Positions 7,584 to 44,872 of a DNA stretch of 64,000 nucleotides are shown here, piece by piece. Below the pieces are notes generated by a model. That model was not told the DNA's origin and did not search any database. It was given only the letters and a program-made list of their open reading frames with translations. The first letter of the stretch is position 1. Each line of letters opens with the position of its first letter. The translations under genes were made by a program, and so were the position numbers. Source of the DNA: Rhizomicrobium sp. (GTDB lineage: Bacteria > Pseudomonadota > Alphaproteobacteria > Micropepsales > Micropepsaceae); NCBI GenBank assembly GCA_036488415.1, contig DASXHQ010000125.1, forward strand, positions 142 through 64,141. Reading direction: 5' to 3'.

Positions 7584-7622
7584 GCGGGCGTGGTGGAACT
7601 GGTAGACGCGCCAGACTCAAAA
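7584..7622 (+). tRNA. 5' fragment of a split tRNA-Leu(CAA) gene (acceptor 5' strand to anticodon loop)
   Basis: GCGGGCGTGGTGGAACTGGTAGACGCGCCAGACTCAAAA runs through the acceptor 5' strand, D-arm, anticodon stem CCAGA and loop CTCAAAA, then breaks into unrelated AT-rich DNA. The complementary 3' part lies at 44827-44872. Confidence 0.85.
7613..7622 (+). repeat. attL core, 10-bp direct repeat AGACTCAAAA
   Basis: An identical 10-mer occurs at 44817-44826. Flanking bases differ on both sides at both copies. Confidence 0.75.
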
Positions 7623-7743
7623 GCATATTTACGGTAACCGTAAAAATCAAAAATTCTAATGAAAACAATGGCTTTAGTATTGATCGCTGGGCAAAAATGC
7701 GTTACACAGAGATTACACAATTTGCACAATTTCAGCGGTCTGA

Positions 7744-9072
7744 ATGGCAGAACATCACACGCTCATGGGGGGCAAGCTTCACGTTTACAGACGTGAAGGC
7801 AGCTCGCATTGGCAGTGTTCCGCATACCTCGCTGGGAAGAACTGGCGAGTTTCCACGAAGGAAGAGAGTCTTTCACACGCGAAGGACTTTGCCGAAGACT
7901 GGTATCTTGGGCTGCGCGGAAAAGCCCGTAATGGCGAACTAAAATCAGGAATGAAGTTTGAGGAGGCTGCTGAGCTCTTCAAACTCGAGTTCGCGATTAT
8001 CACGCAAGGCGAGCGCAGCGCCAAATATCTCGAAATGCTAGAAATTTGCATTCGCGTTCATCTGTTACCCTTCTTTCGCGGAATGGTCGTGACCGAGATC
8101 ACGTCAGGCGTTGGCCAGCAATTCCGCATATGGCGCATGACGAAGCCGAAGGAGGCGGAAGAGCAGGAGAAGAAGGCCGAGCAAGAAGCGAAGGAGGCGC
8201 GGGAACGCGGCGAGGAACCTAAGGCGGTAAGGTATTGGAAGCTCCCCTCACGAAGCACTTTGCATCACGATTTTCAGGCGCTGCGCCATGTCCTCAAAAC
8301 TGCCCACCGCCACGGCAAACTTCAACATCTCCCCGATCTTTCTGCTCCATATAAATCTTCGGGAAAAATCTCGCATCGTGCGTGGTTTTCGCCGGACGAA
8401 TACAAAACATTCTATGAAGCCACGCGTAAGCGGGCGGAGAACCCACCGAATCCACGGTGGAAAAAACAGTGCGAGCAGTTTCACGATTTCGTTCTGATCA
8501 TGGTCAATACTGGCTTGCGACCAGACGAGGCATCGCGACTGGAATACCGCGACGTTGAGATCGTGAAAGACGCCAGCACCGGCGACACGATTCTTGAAAT
8601 CAGCGTTCGCGGCAAACGCGGCGTCGGCTATTGCAAGAGCATGCCGGGCGCGGTTTATCCGTTCCAGCGACTGCTAAAGCGGAACAAGCCCCAGCCTACT
8701 GATCTTATCTTTGGCAAGGTTCAGCGGGAGTTGCTGAACGCCATCCTCAATGAGACAGGTTTGAAAAAGGATCGGGAAGGCCGGCGGCGCACGGCCTATA
8801 GCCTTCGGCATACCTATATCTGCCTTCGCCTCTTGGAAGGGGCGGACATATATCAGGTCGCCAAGAATTGCCGCACCAGCGTCGAGATGATCGAGAAATT
8901 CTACGCAGCGCATCTCAAGAACATGATTGATGCAGCGGCGGTTAACGTAATGAAGAAAAGGTCGAACGACCGTCCGTCGAAGCGCATAGCGGACGTGAAG
9001 CGCAAGACCAAGGGGAGAAGTTCGGGGACCCGAAATTCCCCCAATCGCAGATTACAGAAACCCAAACCCTGA
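7744..9072 (+). CDS. int: tyrosine-type site-specific integrase
   Basis: 442 aa. The C-terminal catalytic region has ...TGLRPDEASRL..., ...AYSLRHTYICL... and ...IEKFYAAHL (R..HxxR..Y pattern). Lies next to the att site. Confidence 0.9.
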   Translation: MAEHHTLMGGKLHVYRREGSSHWQCSAYLAGKNWRVSTKEESLSHAKDFAEDWYLGLRGKARNGELKSGMKFEEAAELFKLEFAIITQGERSAKYLEMLEICIRVHLLPFFRGMVVTEITSGVGQQFRIWRMTKPKEAEEQEKKAEQEAKEARERGEEPKAVRYWKLPSRSTLHHDFQALRHVLKTAHRHGKLQHLPDLSAPYKSSGKISHRAWFSPDEYKTFYEATRKRAENPPNPRWKKQCEQFHDFVLIMVNTGLRPDEASRLEYRDVEIVKDASTGDTILEISVRGKRGVGYCKSMPGAVYPFQRLLKRNKPQPTDLIFGKVQRELLNAILNETGLKKDREGRRRTAYSLRHTYICLRLLEGADIYQVAKNCRTSVEMIEKFYAAHLKNMIDAAAVNVMKKRSNDRPSKRIADVKRKTKGRSSGTRNSPNRRLQKPKP

Positions 9073-9158
9073 TTATCTCAACCGGCGTCATTATCGCCGG
9101 ACTCTCGCGCAACAATCTATTGCGAACTCTTGCAGCGCCGGTGTAGATAAAACTGCGT

Positions 9159-9243
9159 GCCCGAGTGGTGGAACTGGTAGACGCGCTGGATTCAAAATCC
9201 AGTACCGCAAGGTGTGTCGGTTCGATTCCGACCTCGGGCACCA
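9159..9243 (+). tRNA. tRNA-Leu(CAA), island-borne intact copy
   Basis: 85 nt: GCCCGAG...CTGGA TTCAAAA TCCAG...long variable arm...GTCGGTTCGATTCCGAC CTCGGGC A CCA. The cloverleaf is complete with an encoded CCA. The acceptor and anticodon stems differ from the split host gene. Confidence 0.9.
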
Positions 9244-9277
9244 TTCGTTTCTTTGGACCCGCTAAATTTAGCGGCGG

Positions 9278-11266: not shown

Positions 11267-12355
11267 TCACTGTCGTTTTTTCGTCGGATCAAGCAATTTT
11301 TGCCGGGCAACTGGCGCGGTGCGCAGACTCATCTGATGGGTGGGTTCTCTAAAGTTTTCACCTTTTGCAAGGACTGCCCACGCGATACGCGCGAGCTTAT
11401 TGGCTAAAGCTACCGAAGCGAGCCTGTAGGATTTCCTCTTTGCCAGTCCCGCTGCCCATCGAACGACGTAATGCTTGGAATGGTCTCCGCCTCGCAGAAC
11501 TGACATCGCGCCCATATAGAGCAATCCCCGAAGATAGGAATCTCCTCTCTTGCTGATCCGACCCAACACCTGTCGGCCACCAGAAGATTTTTGAAGGGGC
11601 ACCAGGCCGAGCCATGCTGCCATCTCTCTTCCCGAACGAAACTGTTGTGCATCGCCGACGGTGGCGACAAGTGCAGAAGCCGCTAATGCGCCGACGCCCG
11701 GGACGGTACCAAGGCGTCTGCTATCAGGGCTTTTTTTGTGCCAAGACTCTATCTGTTTAGTGCAACGCTCGATGCGTCTCCCAGTTGTTTTGTATTGTTC
11801 GCCTAAAAGCCGCAACGCTGTCCGACCAATAGGTGGAATCATTTCGCAGGATTCGTCTTCGATGAGCTGGAAAGCTTCAGAAATACCGATGGCACGCTTT
11901 GGGACGACAATTCCGAACTCAACCAGTATTCCGCGAAGCGAATTCGACAATGCCACTCGTTGGCCAATCAGCAGTTTTCGCACTCGGTGCAGGGATAGAA
12001 CGGCCTGCTGCTGAACATTTTTTGTCGGCACGAACCTCATATTCGGTCGCTGAACGGCTTCGCAAATAGCTTCGGCATCGTTGGCGTCGTTCTTATGGGT
12101 CTTGACGTATGCCTTGACGTACGAAGCTGGCATGAGCCTGACGGTGTGCCCCATACCAATAAGCGATCGGGCGATATGATTTGCTCCGGAAGTGGATTCG
12201 ATCCCCACCAAGCAGGGTGGCGTGTTCTCGAAGAATTCGAACATCTGGCTGCGCGAAAGCTTTCGTCGCAACACCGGCTGGCTTTCTATATCGACTCCGT
12301 GAACTTGAAAAACGGACTTTCCAACGTCGAGGCCGACGGTATGAAGAGGCTTCAT
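11267..12355 (-). CDS. IS110-family transposase (DEDD type)
   Basis: 362 aa. The N-terminus VGLDVGKSVFQVHGVD and the C-terminal region VPGVGALAASALVATVGD...FRSGREMAAWLGLVPLQKSSGG are characteristic of IS110/IS116/IS902 transposases. The IS ends could not be defined, as this family lacks clear inverted repeats. Confidence 0.9.
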   Translation of the reverse strand: MKPLHTVGLDVGKSVFQVHGVDIESQPVLRRKLSRSQMFEFFENTPPCLVGIESTSGANHIARSLIGMGHTVRLMPASYVKAYVKTHKNDANDAEAICEAVQRPNMRFVPTKNVQQQAVLSLHRVRKLLIGQRVALSNSLRGILVEFGIVVPKRAIGISEAFQLIEDESCEMIPPIGRTALRLLGEQYKTTGRRIERCTKQIESWHKKSPDSRRLGTVPGVGALAASALVATVGDAQQFRSGREMAAWLGLVPLQKSSGGRQVLGRISKRGDSYLRGLLYMGAMSVLRGGDHSKHYVVRWAAGLAKRKSYRLASVALANKLARIAWAVLAKGENFREPTHQMSLRTAPVARQKLLDPTKKRQ

Positions 12356-14298: not shown

Positions 14299-16590
14299 TT
14301 GAGATCGCGCAACGGCGATGACCTTGGGGGGATGCTTCCGATGAGCGCATGCGCTTCGGTAGAGCCTGACGTGGCAAGCGTCGCTTTCGGCCGAGCCTTG
14401 GCGCTTGTTTTTGTCGTTGCCCTTTTTGCAACAACCGCCACGCCGGTTGCCGCGAAAGATACGTCCAAAGCCTACGAGAAATCGCGGACGGTTTTGTTCG
14501 AGTGGGAAAAGCAGATGCCCACGGTCGAGCAAGTCAATGCCGATACCGCCAGCAGCGACAGCCGAGAGCAAGCAGCCAGTCGCGCGGCGGCGTTCAGCGT
14601 GCTTCTCGATGCAACCTCCACTTACGAAAGTGCGGAGGGTGCCTGGTATGTGGCTCCGCCGCAGGTCAAGGAGAAAACCGCAGGCTACGCGAGCGCCATC
14701 CGCGAAGCGTCGGGCAGCGCCCGTCTCGACGAAGAGAAGTTACGAAACGATCCGGGTTTCAGATATGAGGTGCTCAGTCGCTACTTCGCGCCCGAATATC
14801 TTGAAGCGGCACACGTTGCCGCCCCGCCGCCGCCGTCATTCACAACATGGTTCGCTTACGGCGGCGGTATTCTCGTGCTTGGCTTTTTCGGATGGCTGGT
14901 ATTCAGGCGCAAAGCGCCGGTCGATTCCGCTCCGCCGTTGACGGAGAACTACGGCAGCGCCGCTTGGGCGGCTTGGCGCGTGAATATCGATTCAGGTGAG
15001 GGCGTCGCGCAAGGCGTTGTCTTCGGCAAGAGCAGCGGCCCCGACATTCCAGCAGCCGCGCCCGGCACGCCGATTACGTCGCTGCCGGAAACGCACACGC
15101 TGATCGTCGCCCGCACCAGAGCGGGGAAAGGAACGCGCGTCATCGTGCCGACCTTGCTTCGCTACGGCGGCTCGATGCTGGTGATCGACCCCAAGGGTGA
15201 GAACGCGGCGATCACGGCGCGCACGCGCCGCGATCAGCTCGGGCAGACGGTTCACATCGTCAATCCGTGGGCAGAGATGGAAGGGCTCTACAAAAGCCTC
15301 GGCTTCGCGTCGGCAACCTTCAACCCGCTCGATGCACTCGACCGCGATGATCCGAATGCTGTCGCCTTCGCGCAATCGCTCGCAGCGATCATTTGCCCGC
15401 CCGCGACGGGCAAGGAGCAATATTGGCAGGGCAGCGCCGCCAATGTGCTGGCGGGCGTGTTTCTCTGGATTGCCGATGCACCGGGCGAACAAAAGACTCT
15501 CGCCCGCGCACGCCAGCTCGTGACCATGAGCCGCGCGGATTTTCTCAAGGTGCTGGTGAAGATGGCTTCCTCGACCGCCTACCAGGGCGCGGTCAGCGAA
15601 ATGGTCAGCCAGTACATCGACCTCGCGCCGGAAACTTACAGCGCGATCATGTCGAACTTGGCCGAGAACACCAAGTTCCTGTCAGACCCGCAGATCAAGC
15701 TATCGACCGCCACGTCATCGTTTTCGATGAAAACGTTCCGGGACGAAGCGACCACCGTTTATCTCGTCATCCCGCATGACCGGATTCAGACACACGCCAC
15801 ATGGCTCCGGCTTGTGATCGCCGCTGCCATGCAGGGCATGAAAAGTCACAAGGCCAGAACGGCACCTCGTTATCGCTGCATGTTCCTGATCGATGAGTTT
15901 GGCTCCATCGGCCGCATCGACGATATCCCGCGCGATATCGCGCTGATGAGCGGATACGGGCTCGACTTCACGCTGATCGTGCAGGGGCTCGATCAGCTGA
16001 AGGATCACTATGGCGATGCCAAAGGGACCATTCTTAGCAACTGCGCTTTCAAATGGTTCTGTTTCGTGAACGAACTCGACACCGCCAAATACCTCAGCGA
16101 GAGCCTTGGCAAGGCGACCGTGCGGACGGTCGGAAAATCCGAATCTTCGGGCAAGAGCGCCGACCGCGCGACGGCGGGAGAAAGCATCAATTACGGCGAG
16201 ATGGGTCGGCCGCTCCTGACGCCAGACGAAATTCTAAACCTTGGGCGTGACGCCGCGATCCTGCTCAATCCTCAGGGTCTGCCTTGCTACCTTCGTCCGG
16301 TGGACTACTGGAACCTTTCCAGCGCTTACGGCTATCTCAAGATGCAGGGTCATAAGTTCTATTGGGACCCGCCGGTCGCCTATGACGAAAATCCCTATTT
16401 CAAGGGGCAGCCGCCAGTCGCAGGGCAGATGTCGCGCGAGGAAGCGTTGAAAATCCTGAGCCTCGGGGAGCGTGCCGATAGAAACGCAATCGCGACGCGC
16501 TATCGCTCGATGGTGAAATTTCTGGAGCCGGGCGACGACGAGATTGCCCGCAAGCTCAATGCGGCGCGAGATGTGTTGATTGGGGAATGA
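14299..16590 (+). CDS. type IV secretion coupling protein (VirD4/TraG-like) with a J-domain-like C-terminal tail
   Basis: N-terminal hydrophobic segments. The NTPase core has ARTRAGKGT, VIDPKGE, MFLIDEFGSIG and LIVQGLDQL. The start is uncertain (TTG 14299, ATG 14332 or 14341). Confidence 0.85.
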   Translation: MRSRNGDDLGGMLPMSACASVEPDVASVAFGRALALVFVVALFATTATPVAAKDTSKAYEKSRTVLFEWEKQMPTVEQVNADTASSDSREQAASRAAAFSVLLDATSTYESAEGAWYVAPPQVKEKTAGYASAIREASGSARLDEEKLRNDPGFRYEVLSRYFAPEYLEAAHVAAPPPPSFTTWFAYGGGILVLGFFGWLVFRRKAPVDSAPPLTENYGSAAWAAWRVNIDSGEGVAQGVVFGKSSGPDIPAAAPGTPITSLPETHTLIVARTRAGKGTRVIVPTLLRYGGSMLVIDPKGENAAITARTRRDQLGQTVHIVNPWAEMEGLYKSLGFASATFNPLDALDRDDPNAVAFAQSLAAIICPPATGKEQYWQGSAANVLAGVFLWIADAPGEQKTLARARQLVTMSRADFLKVLVKMASSTAYQGAVSEMVSQYIDLAPETYSAIMSNLAENTKFLSDPQIKLSTATSSFSMKTFRDEATTVYLVIPHDRIQTHATWLRLVIAAAMQGMKSHKARTAPRYRCMFLIDEFGSIGRIDDIPRDIALMSGYGLDFTLIVQGLDQLKDHYGDAKGTILSNCAFKWFCFVNELDTAKYLSESLGKATVRTVGKSESSGKSADRATAGESINYGEMGRPLLTPDEILNLGRDAAILLNPQGLPCYLRPVDYWNLSSAYGYLKMQGHKFYWDPPVAYDENPYFKGQPPVAGQMSREEALKILSLGERADRNAIATRYRSMVKFLEPGDDEIARKLNAARDVLIGE

Positions 16591-20229: not shown

Positions 20230-20534
20230 GAGTCTGATATTCTGATATCAGGGTGTGCAAGCCATGCGCGGTAACACCGCGCCGGGCTTGGCAAGGGGAT
20301 TTTCCATCCCCGTTGCATCCCCAGAACCAAGGCGTTCCGCCCGTGGACCCTGACCGGGGCTTCGCCCTGGACCCGACCAAAGAGCCTTCGTGCCCTTTGG
20401 AATCCAGACCGGGGTTTGGCCCCCGGCGACAACCAAGGATGCCTCTCGCCCTTGGGCCCGAGTCGGCCTCGCGCCGGCTCCGCCAAGGGGATGCCCCTTG
20501 GAACCCGCGTGCTCGCGCACGCAAGGAAGGGGGC
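20230..20534 (+). promoter_or_regulatory. candidate oriT / relaxosome assembly region upstream of mobC
   Basis: Dense cluster of short inverted repeats: CTGATAT-tctg-ATATCAG (20234-20251), GGGGAT-tttcc-ATCCCC (20295-20311), CCAAAG..CTTTGG (20377-20400), CCGGGG-tttgg-CCCCGG (20409-20425), CCAAGG..CCTTGG (20433-20455) and CCAAGGGG-atg-CCCCTTGG (20483-20501). Its position immediately 5' of mobC and the relaxase is typical for an oriT. Confidence 0.35.
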
Positions 20535-20933
20535 ATGGCAAGCGGAAGCGACAAGCGTCAGCGAGGCCAAACTGTCACCGTCCGTCTTACGAAAGACGAA
20601 CGGGCCACCCTCGATGCTTTGTCTTCGCGCAGCGGCCTCGCAGCCGGTGCTTTTATGCGCGCTGCCGCCTTCGGCGACAGCGGTCCCCGCGCCCAACGCC
20701 GCCCACCCGCAGACCATAAAGCCCTGCGCCAGTTACTCGGGGAATGCGGGCGCGTCGGCAACAATCTCAACCAGATCGCAAAGCGATTGAACGAGGGCGC
20801 GCCGGTTAACATCCCCGAGCTTCGAGAAGCACTGGCGGCTTATCTCGACATCAGGGCCGCCATCTTGCGCGCTTTGACAATGGAGACGATCGGGGAGAGT
20901 TCATCCGAAGGTTCGGCTCCCGATGATCATTAA
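20535..20933 (+). CDS. mobC: MobC-family mobilization (relaxosome accessory) protein
   Basis: ATG at 20535 after AGGAAGGGGG. Contains the RHH-like VTVRLTKDERATLDALS and the LLGECGRVGNNLNQIAKRLN motif typical of MobC. The ORF-track start at 20253 is an unlikely extension through the repeat region. Confidence 0.8.
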   Translation: MASGSDKRQRGQTVTVRLTKDERATLDALSSRSGLAAGAFMRAAAFGDSGPRAQRRPPADHKALRQLLGECGRVGNNLNQIAKRLNEGAPVNIPELREALAAYLDIRAAILRALTMETIGESSSEGSAPDDH

Positions 20934-22368
20934 GGGCAAGAGCCGTGGTGGGCCCGTACAGCTTGCGAAGCATCTGCTCCGCACGGATACGAACGAGACC
21001 ATTCAGATCGTGCAGCTTGAATCACCGACTGGCAGCCTCAGGGAGGCCTTGCGCGACTGGCAGTTTATCTCCACCGGCACGCACGGCAGCAAAGGGCTTT
21101 ACCACGCCAACATTTCTCCCGAAGCCCGTTACGTGATGACGCCCGAGCAGTGGAAGCGCGCTGTCGATGTCCTCGAAAAGGAGCTTGGTTTTGACGGCCA
21201 GCCCCGTGCCGTCGTGGTGCATGAGAAACATGGCCGCCAGCATATTCACGTTGTGTGGCAGCGCACCGACATCGACACGATGACGCTCGTTCCCGACAGC
21301 TTCAACTATGTCGCCCACGAAAGGGCGAGCATGGCGCTGGAGAAGGAATTTGGGCACGAGCACGTTCCCGGCAAGCACGCCAAGCGCGACCGAGAGAAAC
21401 AGCCGGAATTCCCGAAAGCCGAGATCAATCACGCCGAATGGCAGCAGGCTGAACGCGCCGGAGCCGATCCACGCGCGTTCAAGGACGCGATCACCGCCAT
21501 ATATAAGTCATGCGATAACGCGCAGGCGTTTCTGGCGGCGCTTGAGGAACACGGCCTCTTAGTCGCCAAAGGCGACCGGCGCGATTATGTCCTCGTGGAT
21601 GAAGCCGGACAAATCTACAGCCTGGCGCGGCAGATCAAAGGCATCACCGCCAAGGATCTGCGTGCCTTTATGGCCGACGTTGATCGGGAATCGATTCCGG
21701 CCACCGAGCAGGCCAAGGAGATTCAGGAACAGCGCGCGCGGGCACGGGAGCAAGCGCCTGCGGAGAGCCTTGAATCTGCACAGCCGACCGCATCGACCAA
21801 AGAGGAAACCGCCGCCCTTGAACAGGCGCTACGCGAACGTCATGCGGAAGAGGGGCAGCAGCTCCGTCTCCGGCAGGACGCCGAATATAAAGAGACAAGC
21901 CGTATCCTTGAGGATGAAGCCCGCGAGAAACTTGGCCACATCGATGCCCTGCAACAGGCGGCACGGCAGCGCTTTTTCCGGGAGACGTATCGGGCCAAGA
22001 CCGGATTCGACGGCTTCATCGATGCGATCAAGGAGAAACTCAACCCGAAGCAAATGGCCGAGGCTGCGCGTGAACGCAAAGAAGCGGCGGATACGTTCCT
22101 GCACAACCAAAAGCAGGAGCGTGAAGATTATGTTGCACGGCTCGAAGCCGCTCGGGCAGCCGATCTTGCCAATCTGGCCGAACGCCACCATCAGCAGCAG
22201 CGGGAATACGGCGCGCGTTTCGAGGAAGAACGCGCTCGCTATTTGCGCGAGGCTGATGCCGCTGCGAAACTCCTTGCCGAGATTGAGGAGCGCCGTCGGC
22301 AGGAAGAGCTACGTGCCGAACGAGATCGAAACAGGGACGGCCCAGCGCCGCCTGGGCGCGCACGCTGA
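20923..22368 (+). CDS. relaxase / mobilization nuclease (MobA/VirD2 superfamily, MOBQ-like)
   Basis: N-terminus MIIKGKSRGG...LAKHLL, then ...LYHANISPE... and the His triad HGRQHIHVVWQR. The C-terminal half is a charged coiled coil. Overlaps mobC by 11 nt. Confidence 0.85.
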   Translation: MIIKGKSRGGPVQLAKHLLRTDTNETIQIVQLESPTGSLREALRDWQFISTGTHGSKGLYHANISPEARYVMTPEQWKRAVDVLEKELGFDGQPRAVVVHEKHGRQHIHVVWQRTDIDTMTLVPDSFNYVAHERASMALEKEFGHEHVPGKHAKRDREKQPEFPKAEINHAEWQQAERAGADPRAFKDAITAIYKSCDNAQAFLAALEEHGLLVAKGDRRDYVLVDEAGQIYSLARQIKGITAKDLRAFMADVDRESIPATEQAKEIQEQRARAREQAPAESLESAQPTASTKEETAALEQALRERHAEEGQQLRLRQDAEYKETSRILEDEAREKLGHIDALQQAARQRFFRETYRAKTGFDGFIDAIKEKLNPKQMAEAARERKEAADTFLHNQKQEREDYVARLEAARAADLANLAERHHQQQREYGARFEEERARYLREADAAAKLLAEIEERRRQEELRAERDRNRDGPAPPGRAR

Positions 22369-26324: not shown

Positions 26325-26486
26325 CTGTTCGGCTCTCCACAAGCTGCGCTTGAACCCGGAGATACTTGCAAAATGGCGCGTTTTACTGGGGACGCTCAAT
26401 AGAGCGCCATGTCCTTTTAAGTAAAACAAGCGCCTTTGACGACGGGGGCTTGGAAATAGGGTATCCTCGCATTGAGAGGATATGCC

Positions 26487-33525: not shown

Positions 33526-36500
33526 TTAGTCTGCGGTCGCATCCGGGTCGGGCATCATGATCGGCCAGGGCTTGCCCGACGCAAGGTCGGGATGGCGAGG
33601 CTCGGTTTCCGGCGCGCCGTAATCGTCCCTGAACTTGTCGATGAGGCTGAGGCAGCGCGCGGCGGGATCATCAGCCCCGCCGCACTTTGTCATCGCCAAA
33701 AGCTTCCGGCGCAGTTCGGTGGCGGGGACGGGCACGACGTTGTACGCGCCTTTCCAGTTTTCGGAGGGTACGTGTTCGGTGACGGCGCTCTGGATTGACT
33801 GCCACGCCAGATACGAGCGCCCGGTCTTGATCTCGATATCGATCAGCATGAGCAGTCCTTCAGTTCCGGGGGCTTGGGCGACAGCGTAGGCGAGGAGCGC
33901 GAGAGCTTTGGAACTGACCCCATCCTTGAGCAAGGCGTACACATAGGCGCGCACTTCCGCGAACGCCGAGATCAGGGCGCCAAGTTCGCGCCCCCAAAGC
34001 AACTCGTCCGTGGGCTTGCCGTCCAGCGTGCCGCTGACCGTCAAATCAATGAGGCGGCGCGCGGCTGATACGGTGCCGAGTTGCATGGCTGTCGCCCGCC
34101 ATTGGTGGTTCAGGTAGAAGCGCGGGTCTTCTTCGGCGAGCTTGAACAACACATCTTCCGCCCCGGCTGAGGGCGCGTTCCCGAGGCCGCCAACCATTTC
34201 TTCGAGCAAATGCGGGTTACGCTGCGCGTCAGGCATGCCGCGCACGATGGCGGGCAGATCGGCGACAGGGTTCGCGAAGGGCAGGAGTCGCAACCATGCG
34301 CGGAGCTGGTAAGCGTCGCTCTGCGTTAGAATCCACGTCTCCTTCTTTGCCGCTTCAAAAGTCTCCGTAATGCCGTCTGCCACAAGCCTGATGTTGATGT
34401 GCTCGCCGGAAAGGACGAGCGCCAAAAGCAACGCCGCGCGCGCCTGTCGCGGCGCGAGCGCAATAAGCTTCTGAATCACCGCGTCGCGCTGGCCATGGGG
34501 CAGCCGCGCACCGACGATCCCGAGGGCTACCGCCAGTTTCCTTTGTTCGTCCGTCGATCCTTCGGCAATCAAAGTGTCAATCGCGCCAAAGATGGCTTCG
34601 GCTTCCGCCGATGTTTCGGCGGGATTGGCGGCGCGGGCGGCGCGACGTTCTTCGATGCGCGAGAAATCCGCGCCGCTGCGGAATTTCCTGTCGCCCTTGG
34701 GTTCGTTGGCCTCTGACCACTGGACGGCAAGCACCGTCGCGGCCAGTTGCCCGAAATGTTCGTCGGTTAGATAGCCGCTCATAAGCGCGGCGGTCTCCGG
34801 CGTCTTGATCGCGATAAACGCGCGTTGATATTCGTGCGTATGCGGCGTCCGGGCCTCGTTCACCGCCGCGCCCTGACGCCAGCCGTTGGCGCTGGCTTCT
34901 TCACGGAAGGCGCGATAGCGGCGCAAATTGTCGTCGAGCAGTCTCTTGAGCAGCGGGAGCAGTGCTACGGCCGGAGCGTGACCGATCAGGGAGGCGATAG
35001 AAGCCATTTGCCCGCGCGTGGCGTCGCCTGACGCGAGCATGCGTTCACCCCATGCCCGGGCCAGCTTGCCAATCGCGGCCAGGCCTTCGGCATTGAACGG
35101 CCGCGCGCGGTCGTTGTCTCCGTTAGTCTCCCGGGACAGAAGCCCGGCCAGCTCCACAATCTCTTCGTTGTCCGCCGTGCCGGCGCGCGACTGCACGGCG
35201 GCAATCAGGCTCGCTCCCGGCGTATGGCCGATGCGCGCACGAAGGTCGTGGTAACGATCACCCGCCGCTTGATCGTATTTGCCGCTGGCGTCGCGCAATA
35301 CTTTGCGGGCGTCAAGATACGCGTCGATCATCCGGTCAACGGCCTTTGGCCCGAGCACCGAGGCGGCAGCCTCTGCGCGGTCATCAGGGCGGCGCGTCTC
35401 CCCGAGCGCGGCGTCGAGCAGCGCGTGGTCTTCAAGCGCAAGCCCGGCAGCCGCGAGAATGTCATCCGCGCCATAGAACAATGTGCGGTTCTCGCGCACA
35501 CGGCGCAGCAGTCCCTCCGCGAGCGCTTGCGGGTAGCGTTTTCGCACTTCGTACAACAGGTGCATTTCGCCATCGCGTTTACGGTCGATCTCCATTTCGG
35601 CCACGATCCCGCTGACTTCCGCAGCGCTGTCATCGCCGCCCTTGGCGTAGAGGAGCGCCCGCAGGCGCTCGAAGGGAGAGACGCCAGCCGCCTGGCGGCG
35701 TTCACGCGCCGCCGCCAGACCTTTCTGAACGGCATCGACGGCAATGTCATCGATGTGGCCTTTCTCGGCCAGGATGTCATAGGTCGCGTCGCCCGCGTCG
35801 CCGAGCAGGTCGGCGACGTGGCGATCCGCCCGCCGAAATGAAAGCGCATCGACAACGGCCGCTTTCACATCGGGATCGCTGTCGGCCTTCGCGACGGCGG
35901 TCGCAAGGTCGAGGCCGTCCATGCCGCCCTGCATCGCGATTTCATGCAACACGTTCCTGCGGACTTCTGGGGGCAGCGCCGCGATCCGCTTCGGGGCGTC
36001 GCTCCCGAGCAAAGACGGACGGAACCGTCTCGCCGCCCGCAGGGCAGCCAGATGAACCTGATTGTTTTCATGCGTGATCAGGGGCCAGATCAGGTCACCG
36101 AATTCCGGTCTGCCCGACGTGGTCATGAACCGGACGGCGCGATCCACTTTGCCGGGCGCATGCCACTTATCGATGAAGCCACGAATCTTGGCGCTGATCG
36201 GCGCCCACACGTCGTCGGTGGCGCGAAAGATCATTTCGCCCGCGAGGACAGGATCGACCTCGAAGGCGGCGAGAATGGCCGCGCCGCAGGCGGCCTTCTG
36301 CGCGGCATCGCCGCGCGCGCTCCGTTCGACCGCGAACAGGATCGCTTCTTCCCACGGGCGCTGGTTGAGCACATCGGCCTTGAGCTTGTCGCGCGCCGCC
36401 ATGTCGCTACCGGCGTCAGCCATCAGGCGTTCGACGCGGTGGGACGCATACCATTCCTGAAACTGCTGATGCTGAAATGAATAGCCCGGCGTGTCGCCGG

Positions 36501-37893
36501 CGCGCATCAGGACGTGATTGCTCACGAGGGTTTCCAGCAGCGTGCCGGGTTGTGTGGTGATGGTGATTTGCCCGTCCGCCAACAGCATCTGCGCCGTCGC
36601 CGAAACCGATTTCCGCGCGTTGCCGTCCGTAATGGCCGTGTTCGCCGTTGTCGTGGCGAATACGGCGAGGTCGTCCAGATAATCCCGCTGAAAGCCGTGC
36701 GTCACGGCGTAAAGCGCCGCCGCGCGCCCGGCTGCCTGTTCATGGGCGGCAACAAAACGCCGCAGCACTTCTTCCTTCGTCGCCGGAAACGGCGCGCCGT
36801 CCGGTAGCGAGAGCAATGCCGTGAGATAGAGCGGGATGGTCACCAACTCACGGACACCCGCTGTCCGCCACGCCTGATCGACGAGCTTTGCACCGTTATC
36901 GCCGCGCATCGCCCTGGCAATTTCCATCTGCTGTTCGTCGTTGAGCGGCAGCAGATCGACGCGCGTGCCGGCGAAAGGAATGTCGAGGGCCTGTTTGCGC
37001 GTGGAAATCAGCAGGCCGAGTTCGGGCAGTTCCGCTTTGAGGTTTGTGACCTGCACCCGTGCGCGATCACGCGCGGCGGTGTCAAGTTCGTTCCAGCCGT
37101 CGAGCAGAAGCACGACCCCGGGCTTGGCGGCGACGGCTCGGAAGTCCGTCTCCGAAACCCCGGTAAACGCGGGGCGCTTCAGGATGGACGCGAGCAACGC
37201 GTCGCTATCGGTGGCCCAATCACCGAGCGGCACGAGGAGCGGCGTGCCGTTCCCGATCTCCAGCACGCCTTCGGCGACCTGAAAGAGCGTGGTCGTCTTT
37301 CCCATGCCGGGCGGCGCGATAAGGATAAGGTCATCGAGCGTGGTGACGGCGTTCGCGAGCGCGCGCGTACTCAGCGCCTCATCCACATGGTCAATCTTGA
37401 GCGTCAGCGCGACAGCCGTGCCGGGCCATTTATCCGTCTGCCGGAATACCGCCAGATCGGCCGCCGCCGCCGCGCGCAGCCGATCTCTCAATGCGTCGGG
37501 CGTTAGCGCTTGCATCCCCGGTCCAAAAGGAGAGTTGTCCATGATGCTGCGCCACGAATCCCTGTCAGTCTGCGTTTTCCAGTCGCGCAGCAATTCGACA
37601 GTGAATATCGAATCCTTCGCGTCCACGGCGCGCGCATGGACATCACAAAGCCAAATGCCGTTTTCGATGGAGCGCCGTTCTTCGGGCGTCATGCTATCGT
37701 CGTAGCGCGGGCCACCCGGCGCGGCGGCGCAAATGTGCGCCGCTTCCCCGATGTTAATTTCGCCAGAAGCGTCGGAGTTCGCCGCGTGCGTTAGGCGGCG
37801 GCATGCCGGATTGGAGCAATGGCCGCGCGCCTGTCTCTCAAGGGCCTTCTTGGTCCGGTCTGTGAATTCGTCTCTGTTCTTGTTCTTGGCCAT
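33526..37893 (-). CDS. STAND NTPase: N-terminal HNH-like nuclease, NACHT-type P-loop, long HEAT-like repeat region
   Basis: N-terminus HCSNPACRR...GEAAHICAAAPGGPRYD...ENGIWLCDVHARAVD (HNH/His-Me finger pattern). Walker A IAPPGMGKTT (37291-37320), Walker B VVLLLDGWNEL, then about 1100 aa of helical repeats. 1455 aa. Confidence 0.85.
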   Translation of the reverse strand: MAKNKNRDEFTDRTKKALERQARGHCSNPACRRLTHAANSDASGEINIGEAAHICAAAPGGPRYDDSMTPEERRSIENGIWLCDVHARAVDAKDSIFTVELLRDWKTQTDRDSWRSIMDNSPFGPGMQALTPDALRDRLRAAAAADLAVFRQTDKWPGTAVALTLKIDHVDEALSTRALANAVTTLDDLILIAPPGMGKTTTLFQVAEGVLEIGNGTPLLVPLGDWATDSDALLASILKRPAFTGVSETDFRAVAAKPGVVLLLDGWNELDTAARDRARVQVTNLKAELPELGLLISTRKQALDIPFAGTRVDLLPLNDEQQMEIARAMRGDNGAKLVDQAWRTAGVRELVTIPLYLTALLSLPDGAPFPATKEEVLRRFVAAHEQAAGRAAALYAVTHGFQRDYLDDLAVFATTTANTAITDGNARKSVSATAQMLLADGQITITTQPGTLLETLVSNHVLMRAGDTPGYSFQHQQFQEWYASHRVERLMADAGSDMAARDKLKADVLNQRPWEEAILFAVERSARGDAAQKAACGAAILAAFEVDPVLAGEMIFRATDDVWAPISAKIRGFIDKWHAPGKVDRAVRFMTTSGRPEFGDLIWPLITHENNQVHLAALRAARRFRPSLLGSDAPKRIAALPPEVRRNVLHEIAMQGGMDGLDLATAVAKADSDPDVKAAVVDALSFRRADRHVADLLGDAGDATYDILAEKGHIDDIAVDAVQKGLAAARERRQAAGVSPFERLRALLYAKGGDDSAAEVSGIVAEMEIDRKRDGEMHLLYEVRKRYPQALAEGLLRRVRENRTLFYGADDILAAAGLALEDHALLDAALGETRRPDDRAEAAASVLGPKAVDRMIDAYLDARKVLRDASGKYDQAAGDRYHDLRARIGHTPGASLIAAVQSRAGTADNEEIVELAGLLSRETNGDNDRARPFNAEGLAAIGKLARAWGERMLASGDATRGQMASIASLIGHAPAVALLPLLKRLLDDNLRRYRAFREEASANGWRQGAAVNEARTPHTHEYQRAFIAIKTPETAALMSGYLTDEHFGQLAATVLAVQWSEANEPKGDRKFRSGADFSRIEERRAARAANPAETSAEAEAIFGAIDTLIAEGSTDEQRKLAVALGIVGARLPHGQRDAVIQKLIALAPRQARAALLLALVLSGEHINIRLVADGITETFEAAKKETWILTQSDAYQLRAWLRLLPFANPVADLPAIVRGMPDAQRNPHLLEEMVGGLGNAPSAGAEDVLFKLAEEDPRFYLNHQWRATAMQLGTVSAARRLIDLTVSGTLDGKPTDELLWGRELGALISAFAEVRAYVYALLKDGVSSKALALLAYAVAQAPGTEGLLMLIDIEIKTGRSYLAWQSIQSAVTEHVPSENWKGAYNVVPVPATELRRKLLAMTKCGGADDPAARCLSLIDKFRDDYGAPETEPRHPDLASGKPWPIMMPDPDATAD

Positions 37894-38579: not shown

Positions 38580-40126
38580 ATGGCTCAACCAAACGAAAAA
38601 CTTGCAGTATCCCTGAGTGAGCTTGCGCAATTGCAGGCTGAGGGAAGACGCGTATTTAGGTCCAAAGAGCTTTCCCGGGTCCATCGGAACGCCTGCTCAA
38701 GCACGGCTTCATTCAGGAGGTCATGAGAGGCTGGCTTATCTCCTCCAGCCCGAGCGCTGCCCAGGGCGATAGTACCCCTTGGTACGCCTCTTTCTGGGAG
38801 TTTTGCGCCCTCTATTGCAATGACCGTTTTGGAGAGAAATGGCACCTCTCACCCGAGCAGTCGATTTTTCTGCATGCCGAAAATACCGTTATTCCGACCC
38901 AGCTCATCGTCTACAGCCCCAACGGCACCAACAACACCGTCCCGCTTCTCTTCGGCACATCCATCTACGATCTCAAGCAGCCGCAAATGCCACCGGTGGC
39001 CGACGTAACGCTGCGCGACGGACTGCGGCTGTTCTCTCCGGCCGCCGCCTTGATACGGGTGCCGGAAGCTTTCTTCTCTCGCTATCCTATCGAAACACAG
39101 GTGGTGCTGACCGGCATTCGCGATGCCTCCGACATGCTGAGCCGTCTTCTGGCCGGCGGCCACTCCGTCGTCGCAGGAAGGCTTGCTGGAGCGTTCCGGC
39201 GGATTGGGCGCGCGGATGTTGCGGACGAAATCATCGCGACCATGAAAGCCGCAGATTACGTGGTCAACGAAACCGATCCGTTCGCTGCGCAGTACGTCTT
39301 TGGCGTACTGCGCAGAGATACACCGCCGATTGTCGGACGCATCGATGCCATGTGGAAATCTATGCGGCAGGCGGTCATCGACGCATTTCCAAAGGTGCCG
39401 GGTCTTCCAAAAGACCAGAAAGCCTATTTGAGTTTCATCGACGGTATTTATCAAAGCGATGCCTACCATTCGCTTTCCATCGAGGGATACCAGGTTACTC
39501 CCGCCCTCATTGAGCGCGTGCGCTCCGGTGCGTGGGATCCACAAAATCACGACGCTGACCGGCAAAACCGCGATGCCCTCGCCGCCAGAGGTTATTGGCA
39601 GGCATTTCAACTGGTAAAGGCGAGCGTCGCTGGAATTATCACCGGTAAAAATGCCGGTGCGATCGTGCGCACGGCCCATCGTGACTGGTATCGCGAGCTA
39701 TTTCAGCCCTGCATTGCCGTTGGTTTGCTCCCTGCGACCGCGTTGGCGGGCTATCGCAATGATGCTGTCTATCTTCGCACCTCGCGTTACGTGCCTCCTC
39801 GTTGGGAAGCCGTGCGCGACGCGATGCCAGCATTGTTCGACTTGCTCGAAGCCGAGCCTGAACCGTCAGTGCGCGCAGTGCTGGGGCACTGGCTGTTCGG
39901 CTATGTGCACCCTTATCCCGATGGCAACGGGCGCATGGCCCGCTTCCTGATGAATGCAATGCTGGCGTCAGGTGGCTATCCGTGGACGATCATCCGTGTC
40001 GAAGATCGATCTGCCTATTTGAGCGCTCTGGATAGCGCTAGCGTCGATATGGATATCGCACCATTCGCCAAATACGTCGCCGGGCGGGTCAAATGGTCGA
40101 TGGAACAGCCTGCAGCAACCCAATGA
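38580..40126 (+). pseudogene. Fic/DOC-family protein with an apparent 1-nt frameshift near 38686 (otherwise intact)
   Basis: Fic motif HPYPDGNGRMARFLMNAML. The 467-aa frame opens only after the TAG at 38657-38659. Frame +1 from the ATG at 38580 gives MAQPNEKLAVSLSELAQLQAEGRRVFRSKELSRVHR. This continues sensibly as ERLLKHGFIQEVMRGWLISS only if one base is added around CATCGG|AACGC. Confidence 0.6.
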
Positions 40127-40629: not shown

Positions 40630-40652
40630 CCGAAAGCGACAGGAGTGCAGAC

Positions 40653-41207: not shown

Positions 41208-41450
41208 AAAAGGCGGGCCATTCAAGATCAGCTCGCTAAAGCGACAATTTCCATCAAATATAGTGACATTGGAGGTCAGCGATATTCTCAGGCATTTACA
41301 GCGAAAGTTGCCGTCCATGTTTTCGAACATCCGTCCGAAAACTCGGCCGCAAAGCTGATAGGTGAGATGGATTTTGTCAGTGCTGACTAGCTTCTCAATA
41401 CCAGAAATTTGCGCATGAAACCGATCCGAGCCGTTGCTTAATGGAGTCTA

Positions 41451-42782
41451 ATGACCGTTTCTAACCAAAACCTGGAGCGGCTGACGCGCGCCGTGGCGGC
41501 GCTACGCGGTAGGGAAATTCCGAATAGCAGCATATCGGCTAGCCTACCGCCGATGCGTGACCTGATCGATCTATGCATAGAATTGTTTCCAGTTGAGATC
41601 GGGACGGACAAAAAGGGTGACCCGTATCGTGAAGATGTGCGATGGGCGCTGGTCAATCTGTTTCGCGCGACGGGTATCCCCGGATCGCCGGGAGGGCCTG
41701 TGTCGGCGGAGCCGATGGCAAGGGCAATCTGCGAAGCGATGACGGCGCGGAGCATGCCGCTTCTGCATCTGTGTCCGCTTGATATGGCCGATGACTTACC
41801 TCGCCTCCGGTTCGGTCCCTGCGAAATCCGGACCTTCAGCCGGCAAGAGTTGGAAGACGTGATCCAGCTACCACGCCTTCGGAGGCAGTTTACGAGCCTG
41901 ACTCTTGATACAGGCGGATTGTCGGACTTCACCTGGCTGGTGGTTCGTGAAACACCCGCGCTACAAAGTCGGATTGGCCTCCGATCAAATTTCTGGTGGA
42001 ATCTTCGGCTGGATGAGGATTTGGGCGCGATAAAGCCCTATTCGCGCACATGGCCAGAAGCAGTCGAACGAGCCGTGTTCGGCCTTCTCCTGTTACCGTG
42101 GGAGGAGTTCGCCGCCTATCCGGATATGGAGTGGCGCGGGTTCAAGATTCCATGGGTCTACACCGTGGATTACGATCCTTTCGTCGCGCCAAAGATGCCG
42201 AAAGGGCCGGAAACATTGTCGCGCGAACCGGCAATTTATCAGGACATCCAGACGGGCGAAGAGGTTGAACTTGAAAAGCCCGTTCGCCTGCCGCTGAGAG
42301 ACGATATGGACGGTGCCTGGGCGACGGTTTGCGACCAATGGTGGGAAGAATTGGGCAGGGCGGTTACATCGCCTATCGTCAATCCGCTTGTAGTACATTT
42401 TCTGGTGAGGGCCTTCATCACTGACGACATCGATGAATTTCTGGGCCATATCACGACGATTGAGGCGGCACTCGGCATGGAGCGCGACCACAACCGTGAC
42501 GGTGCGAGGCCTAAGATAAACGGGGACAACCCGGGCCCCACGGAACGTATCGCTCGCCGCGTGTCTGCCCTGACGGGCGACGCAACTTCGGCGGAGAGAT
42601 ATCGTGAGCTATTCGGAATGCGCAGCGCGTTTGTTCATGGGCGCCGGCTCGATGTCATATCATCCGAAAAACGCAACCAAGCGCGCGCGATGGCTCGTCT
42701 GGTCGTAAACAATCTTGTTAGCGCCGCCATCACTGGCGCGCATAACAATCGCAAGGAATATCTTTCGACTCTCTGTCCGTAG
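41451..42782 (+). CDS. hypothetical protein with a C-terminal HEPN-like domain
   Basis: 443 aa. The C-terminal helical region has LFGMRSAFVHGRRL (RSAFVH at 42621-42638, the Rx4H-G pattern common in HEPN families). Confidence 0.55.
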   Translation: MTVSNQNLERLTRAVAALRGREIPNSSISASLPPMRDLIDLCIELFPVEIGTDKKGDPYREDVRWALVNLFRATGIPGSPGGPVSAEPMARAICEAMTARSMPLLHLCPLDMADDLPRLRFGPCEIRTFSRQELEDVIQLPRLRRQFTSLTLDTGGLSDFTWLVVRETPALQSRIGLRSNFWWNLRLDEDLGAIKPYSRTWPEAVERAVFGLLLLPWEEFAAYPDMEWRGFKIPWVYTVDYDPFVAPKMPKGPETLSREPAIYQDIQTGEEVELEKPVRLPLRDDMDGAWATVCDQWWEELGRAVTSPIVNPLVVHFLVRAFITDDIDEFLGHITTIEAALGMERDHNRDGARPKINGDNPGPTERIARRVSALTGDATSAERYRELFGMRSAFVHGRRLDVISSEKRNQARAMARLVVNNLVSAAITGAHNNRKEYLSTLCP

Positions 42783-42837
42783 CGATGCGCGTATGAGTTA
42801 GCCCCTCGCGTCTCGACTTTGCTGTCACGTTCTGCTA

Positions 42838-43671
42838 TTGTTCTTTAGTAAAGTGAGAGCGTTTCACGTGATTATAGACTGGCAGGCATCGAAGGAAGAC
42901 TGGATTGACCGTATGCGCGCGGACGTTGCCGCGCGCCTCCTCGCGGACGCGCGGTTCGTCGGTGCCGGGATCATGGTTAGGCGCTTTGATGAAGACGTGG
43001 CGCGCTGGCGTAAGAACGGTAGCTTTCGGTCCGTCATCAACGACGGCAATGAACTCAGTGCCGCCCTGGCTATCCTGGATGATATGAGGCCACAGGATCA
43101 GCTGCTCTACGAGCCGAAGCTGGCACAAACGCGCAAGTCGATAGATTTCTGCGTGATGTGGGCCGACGGCGCACGCAGCTGGATCGATATGAAGACGGTA
43201 GCGCCGCAGTGGAAGAATGATGCCGCAGCCTGGGAACAGTTCTCCCGTATCGCACGCGACTTTCCGGACAACGCTACACTAATCGTAGATCGTGATTTTT
43301 GTGGTGCCGCGCTTGGCACTCAGTTCCTTAAAGCCCGATGGAGTTTGATCCAGCGTACTATCGAACTTGAGGCCAAAGTGGCGTTATTGACGCCGGCTGA
43401 AAAGGGGTCGGTGAGGCTTCTCGTTTGCAACGAGGGTGCCTGGCATGAAGACGATCTAGAAGATTTTGCGGACCTCTATTTCAGCGGCCACTTCCGTGCC
43501 GATGATTGGGCGCAAAATGCCATTGCCCGATATATGACCGAGCGCAATCTTGCCTTTCGACGGACACTTGCCGGTTTCTGCTATTTGGAACGCCATCATG
43601 ACGAGACCTCGGCAGGGCGTTTTACGGTTGATGTGCGGGGGCCAAGATTTTACGGCCCCGTGGCGGCATGA
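42838..43671 (+). CDS. hypothetical protein, possible PD-(D/E)xK nuclease fold
   Basis: YEPK...SIDFCVMW...SWIDMKTV (43111-43194) fits an E...D...DxK arrangement. The start is uncertain (TTG 42838, GTG 42853 or 42868, ATG 42913). The fold call is weak. Confidence 0.4.
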   Translation: MFFSKVRAFHVIIDWQASKEDWIDRMRADVAARLLADARFVGAGIMVRRFDEDVARWRKNGSFRSVINDGNELSAALAILDDMRPQDQLLYEPKLAQTRKSIDFCVMWADGARSWIDMKTVAPQWKNDAAAWEQFSRIARDFPDNATLIVDRDFCGAALGTQFLKARWSLIQRTIELEAKVALLTPAEKGSVRLLVCNEGAWHEDDLEDFADLYFSGHFRADDWAQNAIARYMTERNLAFRRTLAGFCYLERHHDETSAGRFTVDVRGPRFYGPVAA

Positions 43672-43705
43672 TTGGCGCGATCAGCCGAATACTTTTGGTA
43701 GAGCC

Positions 43706-44377
43706 ATGAATTTGGATCACATCCACGGATTGATCGAAAGACTCCGCAAGGCCGTGATCGGCGCGCCTGAATGGATCGAGGCGAAACAGACGTTCGAATA
43801 CAAGAACCAGACAATCGAAGAAGTTGTAGTCCTGAAACTCATCCGGGCCGCCCAAGGCCTGACTGCACTCGATGTCCTGTGCCGCGCAGGCCTTTTTATC
43901 GACTTTGGAGCGAGCATTCGTTCGGTCAACGATTGCGTGGAGGAGGTCTATTTTCTGCTCGAAACCTACCCAGAAAAGCCGGGGCCAAAGGTCGAGCAAT
44001 TCATGAAGAATTTTTTCGAGAATACCATCGACGGATATCTGGATGCTGAAACGCATCAAGTCAATCGCGATAAAATCAGAGCTGCTGTTGTCCGTGTCCT
44101 GAAGGGCGACAAAGACCAAGCTACTCAGCAGATGATAGAAAGAATTTACAAAACTTTTTGCGGCTATGTGCACGCGAGTTACGCGCACATCATGGAAATC
44201 TATAATGGCGGCAATGACGACTTCAATCTCGGCGGCGTTCCATCGGTGCCGGAGCGAGCGAAGCGAATGGAGCATGTGAAGCTCGTTGCGAATTCAGTGC
44301 TGATGGCGGCGGCGTTTGCAGCACACAAATTCAAGCAAGATGTTCTTTACGCAGATGTTCTAAAGTGCGTCGCCTAA
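43706..44377 (+). CDS. hypothetical helical protein
   Basis: 223 aa from the ATG at 43706 (MNLDHIHGLIERLRKAV...). The ORF-track start at 43550 overlaps the preceding gene. No family recognised. Confidence 0.45.
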   Translation: MNLDHIHGLIERLRKAVIGAPEWIEAKQTFEYKNQTIEEVVVLKLIRAAQGLTALDVLCRAGLFIDFGASIRSVNDCVEEVYFLLETYPEKPGPKVEQFMKNFFENTIDGYLDAETHQVNRDKIRAAVVRVLKGDKDQATQQMIERIYKTFCGYVHASYAHIMEIYNGGNDDFNLGGVPSVPERAKRMEHVKLVANSVLMAAAFAAHKFKQDVLYADVLKCVA

Positions 44378-44816
44378 ACCACGACGCGATTTCAGTCTGC
44401 GGTAACATTCCATCGGACAGGTGCAATAGAGAGCACCAGCGATCACACACGGTCCCGCGACCTTGTCGCTCCTGCGAGTGTGCCATAGTGCGCGCCTGTC
44501 GGCATCGCTGGCGCTGACGGCGCTTCCCGCTCGCGCTTGTGCGCGGGCTCCTTGCAGCCTAGCTCGAACCGGGCGCGGCTAAAGCCGCATACCGCTTCGC
44601 GCTTCTGTTAGCCTTGCATTGAGACGGAGGGTTCCGATAGAAAAACAAAGGAAATCAATATATTAGAAAACAGCCCACGATTTCCGACTTCTGCTAACCA
44701 ATTGATCTGTAAGCATAAAGTTGACTTTTCTTCTTTTTATTACACATTCAGTTACACATAAATCCAATTTATTGAATAAATCTATTGAAAATCAGATACT
44801 TAAAGTATAGCATAAT

Positions 44817-44826
44817 AGACTCAAAA
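44817..44826 (+). repeat. attR core, 10-bp direct repeat AGACTCAAAA
   Basis: Identical to 7613-7622. Preceded by an AT-rich arm carrying TTACACA motifs. Confidence 0.75.
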
Positions 44827-44872
44827 TCTGGTTCCGCAAGGAGTGTCGGTTCGATTCCGACCGCCCGCACCA
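44827..44872 (+). tRNA. 3' fragment of the split tRNA-Leu(CAA) gene
   Basis: TCTGG (pairs with CCAGA at 7611-7615), variable arm TCCGCAAGGA, T-arm GTCGGTTCGATTCCGAC, acceptor CGCCCGC (complement of GCGGGCG at 7584-7590), then A and CCA. Joined to 7584-7622 it gives an 85-nt cloverleaf. Confidence 0.85.

Follow-up and report, generated by a model that had tools for sequence, protein, structure and literature searches.

A 64-kb stretch of DNA from Rhizomicrobium sp. (contig DASXHQ010000125.1), hereafter called the window, carries the two halves of a host tRNA-Leu(CAA) gene on either side of an island, which bears a gene for a probable tyrosine integrase (int) and a complete tRNA-Leu(CAA) gene of its own (Table 1). 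The 5′ part of the host gene was located at 7584–7622 (GCGGGCG...CCAGACTCAAAA) and ended at the last base of the anticodon loop, and its 3′ part was located at 44827–44872 (TCTGG...CGCCCGCACCA) with an encoded CCA. Joining of 7584–7622 to 44827–44872 gave an 85-nt gene, which was called as tRNA-Leu(caa) by ARAGORN. The sole sequence common to both junctions was the 10-bp AGACTCAAAA at 7613–7622 and 44817–44826, and the flanks of its two copies were unlike on either side (gcc ... g for the left copy and aat ... t for the right). No complete tRNA was detected at either junction using ARAGORN, Rfam at the gathering threshold, or an nhmmer tRNA-Leu profile, which gave half-genes only. These observations agree with a preliminary description of the window, which had stated that the two parts make a perfect 85-nt tRNA-Leu(CAA), that they share only the 10-bp repeat and are parted in the anticodon loop, and that neither junction encodes a complete tRNA. 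Integration into the anticodon loop is reportedly one of the sublocation classes of tRNA integration described by Williams in 2002. Besides the two halves, a complete gene at 9159–9243 was the only tRNA-Leu piece in the window, making three in all. The int gene begins 121 nt past the left core, and the complete tRNA gene lies on the same strand, starting 86 nt past the int stop codon at 9072. The same description had rightly recognized this tRNA as intact, different from the split gene, and located after int, and only its distance of 87 nt needed correction.

To verify the insertion of the island, metagenome contigs were searched for the middle of the split tRNA in uninterrupted form, and 22 contigs were obtained. 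Five of them (L083, L092, L093, L094, and L097) contained the empty site, in which a GST gene, an identical intact 85-nt tRNA, and rlmJ are arranged as in the window flanks; their GST flank showed 86–88% identity to that of the window. On alignment with the empty sites, the left flank stopped at 7622 and the right flank restarted at 44827, the directly adjacent base. The island is hence regarded as a true insertion, because related contigs hold the syntenic empty site with the identical intact tRNA, and for the same reason a chance origin of the split gene can be dismissed. An intact attB tRNA in relatives lacking the island, which the preliminary description had proposed to look for, was thus seen in five related contigs. 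Another public contig (L081) likewise had the left junction, its sequence being 100% identical to that of the window across 8 kb. The G+C content was 51–60% over much of the island versus about 60–63% in the flanks. The motif TTACACA occurred five times in the 64-kb window, and four of these copies constitute two pairs located just within the island ends (7702/7713 and 44740/44752); the paired motif was also present upstream of int in most related loci. Such pairs around a small core are the layout expected of arm-type integrase sites, to which they are putatively assigned. A perfect palindrome, TTTACGGTAACCGTAAA, was present at 7628–7644, 6 nt past the left core, and may be a protein-binding site. 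Elements in reversed orientation, which carry the 5′ half and its promoter at their far end, were reportedly described by Zhao and Williams in 2002. An element of this kind, rebuilding the tRNA at attR, was considered for the window and rejected, as the sequence before the right core was AT-rich arm DNA with no 5′ half.

Of the 85 positions of the carried tRNA, 13 differed from the split host gene. One difference was a change of C32 to U, and the other twelve fell into six compensatory pairs within the acceptor, anticodon, and variable stems. Since the differences are compensatory, the carried and the split gene both look selected for tRNA structure. UUG accounted for about 13% of the leucine codons in the open reading frames (ORFs) of the host flanks, indicating regular use of the function that disappeared with the split of the gene. 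The carried gene contained the core GGATTCAAAA, which differs from the attP core AGACTCAAAA. A related locus, L116, whose integrase is 71% identical to that of the window, carried a tRNA identical to that of the window at 85 of 85 positions; its host tRNA-Leu(CAA) 5′ half had a different acceptor stem (GCCCCTG) and ended at the loop about 130 nt before int. The presence of the same tRNA in hosts with different acceptor stems suggests that the element takes its tRNA along when it moves. Many loci, including the window, L116, and L117, had a promoter-like motif (TTGCGA or TTGGCG, a spacer of 17–18 nt, and a TATAGAT-like element) whose end was about 8–12 nt ahead of the carried tRNA. Its compensatory changes, this conserved motif, the regular use of UUG, and its Rfam score (55.8 bits to RF00005) give the carried tRNA the look of a functional gene. 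A perfect palindrome, CCGCTAAATTTAGCGG, was located at 9258–9273, 15 nt past the carried tRNA and before a convergent DUF4236/SH3 gene; it may function as a two-way terminator.

Homologues of the integrase constituted 6,910 protein clusters at E ≤ 1e-10, many of which were about 65% identical yet came from unrelated phyla. The family spanned Alpha- and Gammaproteobacteria, Acidobacteriota, Planctomycetota, Armatimonadota, Binatia, and Nitrospinota. The match of the window integrase to Pfam PF00589 was 20.5 bits against a cut-off of 27.1; the TGLRPDE and SLRHTY motifs and the C-terminal tyrosines were invariant in an alignment of 24 homologues, and homologues are named “site-specific integrase” in their source records. 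A scan of one genome per species (185,579 species) gave at least 593 related integrase loci, of which the best 80 were examined. Genome loci were fetched with 6-kb flanks, and the window was the sole clean two-ended element. In about 65 of the 80 loci, a tRNA-Leu 5′ half lay 100–190 nt before int, broke off precisely at the anticodon loop, and was followed by unrelated AT-rich sequence. The commonest junction core was GACTYAAAA. An intact tRNA-Leu was located 50–100 nt after int on the same strand in 33 of the 80, and its anticodon (CAA, UAA, or UAG) was that of the split target or of the attP-like core in all but one of them (32/33). The anticodon also matched the target in 22 of 24 loci whose carried tRNA contains an intron, as described below. 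Target and carried anticodons were associated with a Fisher p value of 6e-13 when phylogeny was ignored (58 loci in which the target is CAA or UAA and the carried tRNA is intact or intron-bearing). The cargo had almost nothing in common between the loci, from which it follows that int and the tRNA form a conserved module. A split target combined with a carried replacement thus appears, as far as these sequences indicate, to be the usual layout in this very large family of integrases.

Other members of the family are canonical, that is, the integrase adjoins a complete tRNA or a 3′ half of one. A complete tRNA-Leu(CAA) was located 114 nt ahead of int in L053, and a complete tRNA-Arg(ACG) was located ahead of int in L051. 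The 3′ half of tRNA-Lys(UUU) preceded int in L105 and L112, and that of a tRNA with a CAT anticodon preceded it in L114 and L115. The full-length plasmid matches H1, H3, and H4 were likewise canonical relatives at tRNA-Lys or the CAT-anticodon tRNA, and no tRNA adjoining int was found in the plasmid match H2. Viral contigs gave three good integrase matches only. Variation was also observed among the loci at tRNA-Leu. L002 and L004 had tRNA-Leu(UAG) as the target or core and carried a UAG tRNA; the fragment beside int in L002 was the 3′ half of the host tRNA on the opposite strand, so that this element is reversed relative to the tRNA. An attP-like junction, composed of arm repeats, core, and arm repeats, was present before int instead of a host 5′ half in the Planctomycetota loci L003, L004, L005, L008, L009, L010, L018, L022, L024, L067, and L078 and in L047 and L052. 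Their contigs were chromosomal in size, and a tRNA-Leu 3′ half was found 0.5–1.7 kb further upstream of the junction in L005, L010, and L022. These loci are likely tandem or nested arrays.

We consider it quite probable that the element splits the host's gene for tRNA-Leu(CAA), leaves it unrepaired, and supplies a replacement in trans. According to this model, attP would consist of the 10-bp core, which mimics the anticodon loop, with the paired TTACACA arm sites around it. Integration through this core would split the host tRNA in the anticodon loop without rebuilding it at either junction, and the decoding of UUG would pass to the complete tRNA-Leu(CAA) that is carried just past int with a promoter of its own. 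The host halves would be joined again by precise excision; the predicted attP junction of the excised circle is ...GCATAATAGACTCAAAAGCATATTTACGG... and the predicted repaired attB is ...GCGCCAGACTCAAAATCTGGTTCC.... The carried gene is predicted to be no substrate for the element’s own integrase, because its core GGATTCAAAA is not that of attP. As a whole tRNA is carried, the element would have no need of a 3′ half that pairs with the 5′ half and acceptor stem of each host, and this freedom could explain the spread of the family across phyla. We infer from the sequences that the carried tRNA is expressed and charged and needed for viability, that it avoids its own integrase, and that the arrangement benefits host range. 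The replacement in trans, as had been claimed in the preliminary description, gained support from the recurrent pairing of split target and carried tRNA, and the anticodon match in 32 of 33 loci argues for a design and not an accident.

Several points weigh against this interpretation. L048, located in a tRNA-Leu(UAA) gene, carries tRNA-Leu(CAA), and its close relative L046 is located in a CAA gene. Seventeen of the 80 loci split a tRNA-Leu gene without a carried tRNA within the available flank of up to 6 kb (L033, L055, L061, L064–L066, L068, L069, L074, L060, L071, L080, L038, L007, L012, L015, and L040); their targets were CAA or UAA, and they belonged mostly to Acidobacteriaceae or Bryobacteraceae. 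A strict sigma-70 scan called no promoter ahead of the carried tRNA, and no excisionase gene was identified, excision being a prediction here. Furthermore, a second tRNA-Leu(CAA) gene elsewhere in the genome, or wobble reading of UUG by tRNA-Leu(UAA), would make the carried gene helpful, not necessary. The 17 loci and the mismatch of L048 would both fit ordinary cargo, for which the carried tRNA is a codon supplement or a decoy against anticodon nucleases, and the host tolerates the loss of tRNA-Leu(CAA) by means of tRNA-Leu(UAA) or a second gene. The defence-type cargo of the island also speaks for this explanation, as does the tolerance of leuX loss by Escherichia coli. It does not readily account for an anticodon that matches the target in nearly all the intact and most of the intron-bearing cases, nor for a tRNA position just after int that is constant across phyla despite unlike cargo. 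UUG is, moreover, in common use in the host-flank ORFs, and phages of the same layout need their carried tRNA for viable lysogens (PMC10865867). We thus hold ordinary cargo to be improbable, while leaving it some weight.

The preliminary description had further suggested an addiction-like arrangement that makes loss of the island costly; on this reading, the island inactivates an essential tRNA and a cell that loses the island dies. In its favour, the window has the host gene in two parts and no complete tRNA-Leu(CAA) other than the island's. Excision by the integrase at the 10-bp core would, however, rebuild exactly the intact gene of the empty sites, so that loss by conservative excision should not be costly; a penalty would fall only on an imprecise deletion that loses the carried tRNA without rejoining the halves. 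The suggestion was accordingly abandoned as very unlikely. That the window represents a decayed canonical island, having lost its 3′ copy, or else an artefact of assembly or rearrangement, is hardly credible. The canonical arrangement of the more distant family members described above (L053, L051, L105, L112, L114, and L115) would be in keeping with decay. Against it, about 65 loci of many phyla are truncated at exactly this point of the loop and continue past the core with unrelated sequence, the clean boundaries have conserved arm sites, the same junction is present in the independent contig L081, and the empty sites are precise.

Group I introns were observed in the carried tRNA of related loci, though not in that of the window. 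In 24 of the 80 loci, the nhmmer profile detected a tRNA-Leu 5′ exon after int and the 3′ exon 200–260 nt further on. These 24 had been taken for loci without a carried tRNA when a regular expression and ARAGORN without intron mode were used, and L014 had been taken for an integrase-only remnant followed by the host 3′ half; both assignments were rejected when the nhmmer profile revealed an intron-split carried tRNA-Leu. The intron-bearing loci comprise L011, L013, L014, L021, L026–L029, L031, L035, L037, L039, L041–L044, L049, L050, L058, L063, L072, L073, L076, L001, and L117, the last of which has an integrase 68% identical to that of the window. The intron was about 200–250 nt long, and the intron-bearing genes lay about 1.2–5 kb past the int start. 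Rfam RF00028 (Intron_gpI) was matched above the gathering score of 50 in L058 (62 bits), L029 (56), and L076 (51), and with E values of 2.5e-8 to 2e-4 in L013, L031, L027, L037, and L044; the conserved intron core GAAGGTGTAGAGACT was present in all 24. The insertion lies between nucleotides 34 and 35 (CTT/...g/AAAA, or CTC/...g/AAAA in L044), and a U-1:G pair in P1 and a terminal G were readable in the intron sequences. By these features, the introns are of the Leu.3Ug and Leu.3Cg types in the catalogue of Williams (bioRxiv 10.1101/2020.01.27.920355).

The intron interrupts the carried tRNA exactly where the integrase core lies, so that the core is broken in the DNA. The 9-nt core of the carried tRNA would, once spliced, be the element’s own junction core in 22 of 24 intron-bearing genes, versus an identical core in 4 of 33 intact carried genes (Fisher p = 1.3e-9, uncorrected for shared ancestry). 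Three tandem integrase genes were found in L059 between −3040 and +1345 from the int start, each with a tRNA-Leu 5′ half ahead of it and the third followed by an intact tRNA. Element types with the arm motifs CTAGCRCA and TTACACA alternate in this locus, and each carries the tRNA type that is targeted by the other. As read from these sequences, L059 indicates nested integration into carried tRNAs, which would make them real targets. L025 and L031 contain 3′ halves of other tRNAs, a sign of nested arrays. In L026, two tRNA-Leu(UAA) 5′ halves were found 38 nt apart between −235 and −119 from the int start; this double half may have been left by an earlier element, the carried tRNA of which later became a target. 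We tentatively propose, with more doubt than confidence, that the family carries replacement tRNA-Leu genes built to escape its own integrases, either through changes in the anticodon stem and loop or through an intron between nucleotides 34 and 35. If this were true, integrative elements would serve to spread group I introns through the tRNA-Leu genes of bacteria, and the intron would double as an anti-integration device that breaks the DNA core yet leaves a normal mature tRNA. Shielding of the tRNA gene from integrases would then be a possible function of such introns, and nested arrays of the L059 kind would record a competition among elements for one another's carried tRNAs.

The remaining genes of the island are listed in Table 1 together with the features described above. 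No phage family was matched among the 30 island ORFs scanned. Since a coupling protein, NikA/MobC, and a relaxase are present and phage matches are absent, the island is not considered a phage and, judged by its genes, is best called an integrative mobilizable element. No mating-pair-formation genes were recognized among the ORFs scanned, which included only part of the small ones and several of which had no family match. Contig L081 ends about 130 bp past its IS110 transposase gene, the last gene called there. The cargo looks defensive from its family matches, and the N-terminus of the STAND/NACHT-like protein is endonuclease-like, with matches to PADLOC endonuclease effectors at residues 4–115. 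A link between the tRNA and tRNase-like cargo (RloC-like and HEPN proteins), on which the preliminary description had speculated, was not borne out, as scans with domain and defence-family profiles found no HEPN, RloC, or anticodon-nuclease domain in the cargo and the AAA_13 protein (26472–29159) resembles PrrC in its ATPase part only. Well outside the island, a 24-nt unit was repeated in tandem about 37 times at 51192–52086 in a G+C-rich host region, with a 72-nt super-unit and 73–74% matches. It is probably repetitive coding sequence.

Table 1. Positions and assignments of the features in the 64-kb window.
Feature	Position	Strand	Basis or remark
GST gene, host flank	6892–7521	−	Pfam GST_N, GST_C; syntenic with empty-site contigs
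Host tRNA-Leu(CAA) 5′ half	7584–7622	+	nhmmer profile positions 1–45, E 1.7e-9; not called as tRNA
Left core copy AGACTCAAAA	7613–7622	+	3 nt of anticodon stem and 7-nt loop
Island body, about 37.2 kb, probable integrative mobilizable element	7623–44816		Absent from syntenic empty sites
TTACACA pair, putative arm-type sites (P′ arm)	7702–7719	+	
Probable tyrosine integrase, 442 aa	7744–9072	+	Weak Pfam Phage_integrase match, 20.5 bits
Promoter-like TTGCGA-N17-TAGATA, inferred	9121–9149	+	Read by eye; ends 9 nt before carried tRNA
Complete island tRNA-Leu(CAA), 85 nt, A73 and encoded CCA	9159–9243	+	ARAGORN; Rfam RF00005, 55.8 bits
IS110-family transposase, inserted in island	11267–12355	−	Pfam DEDD_Tnp_IS110, Transposase_20
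Type IV coupling protein (VirD4/TraG-like)	14299–16590	+	Pfam T4SS-DNA_transf, E 2.7e-77
NikA/MobC accessory protein, relaxosome	20253–20933	+	
MobA/VirD2-type relaxase	20923–22368	+	
Cargo: AAA_13 ATPase, candidate defence family PDC-S06	26472–29159	+	PADLOC, E 1.3e-170; Pfam AAA_13
Cargo: 1,455-aa STAND/NACHT-like protein	33526–37893	−	Pfam NCAB2
Cargo: Fic-domain protein (SoFic-like)	38723–40126	+	
TTACACA pair, putative arm-type sites (P arm)	44740–44758	+	
Right core copy AGACTCAAAA	44817–44826	+	
Host tRNA-Leu(CAA) 3′ half	44827–44872	+	nhmmer profile positions 30–85, E 1.4e-12
rlmJ-like rRNA methyltransferase gene, host flank	45070–45981	+	Pfam RsmJ, E 1.6e-58; adjoins intact tRNA in empty sites

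The strategy of splitting a tRNA and replacing it is itself already known from phages and is not categorically new. It was shown experimentally only in 2024, and only in actinobacteriophages (PMC10865867); the window presents it in a conjugatively mobilizable island. The literature searched seems to contain no description of how broad the family is, of the intron-bearing replacements, or of the nesting. An incomplete search found no literature, beyond the papers cited here, on islands or integrative and conjugative elements that use the strategy, nor on intron-bearing tRNAs located on integrative elements. Across phyla, such elements put foreign tRNA genes in the place of the host's own, and island finders that expect a regenerated tRNA and a fragment will miss them or set their bounds wrongly and will miscount tRNA genes.

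In a canonical tRNA-targeting island, the island sequence regenerates the disrupted tRNA at one junction (Islander, PMC4383910). The present island resembles canonical islands and integrative and conjugative elements in its probable tyrosine integrase near the tRNA-proximal end, the crossover in the anticodon loop, the direct repeat, and the displaced 3′ fragment at the far end, but it has no island-borne 3′ copy that regenerates the tRNA. Further precedents are seen in Sinorhizobium meliloti, where two prophages inactivate tRNA-Leu(UAG) and carry a replacement (PMC11476347), and in the Lactobacillus johnsonii prophage Lj965, as cited for a precedent in PMC10865867. Like the island, these elements use a central site in tRNA-Leu, inactivate the gene, and carry a tRNA with the same anticodon that resembles genes of other taxa; they differ from it in being described as prophages and in comprising only two cases. 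The introns of the related loci share with the group I introns in the tRNA-Leu anticodon loop, reported as types Leu.3Ug and Leu.3Cg (Williams 2020, bioRxiv 10.1101/2020.01.27.920355), the insertion between nucleotides 34 and 35, the RF00028 match, the U-1:G wobble in P1, and the terminal G. That paper draws no link to integrative elements, whereas the intron-bearing genes found here are located just after integrases that split host tRNA-Leu.

The layout corresponds to the tRNA-dependent lysogeny reported for the actinobacteriophages Fionnbharth, LeBron, and Gaia by Guerrero-Bustamante and Hatfull in 2024 (PMC10865867). In these phages, attB lies within a tRNA gene, the core is 8–17 bp, neither attL nor attR regains a tRNA, and lysogens are viable only with the carried tRNA; Gaia targets tRNA-Leu-CAA through an 8-bp core and has its tRNA downstream of int (PMC10865867). 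The vehicle is different here, being a mobilizable island with a coupling protein and a relaxase and without phage genes, so that the term lysogeny does not apply to it, and its host, to judge by its tRNA and flanks, is a Gram-negative alphaproteobacterium; the family, known here from sequence alone, spans many phyla and includes intron-bearing variants. Kinship to phage integrases such as that of Gaia was considered and rejected, as a tblastn comparison of the window integrase with 50,697 phage records gave no match at E ≤ 1e-5. Relatives that rebuild the tRNA exist on both sides, i.e., Omega versus Gaia among the phages and L053 versus the window here, and paired arm-type sites around the core are common to the actinobacteriophages and the island. 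At the level of sequence, the island also shows each feature of tRNA-dependent lysogeny, namely an attB in a tRNA gene, a short core (10 bp), no tRNA at the junctions, and a carried tRNA of the same isotype.

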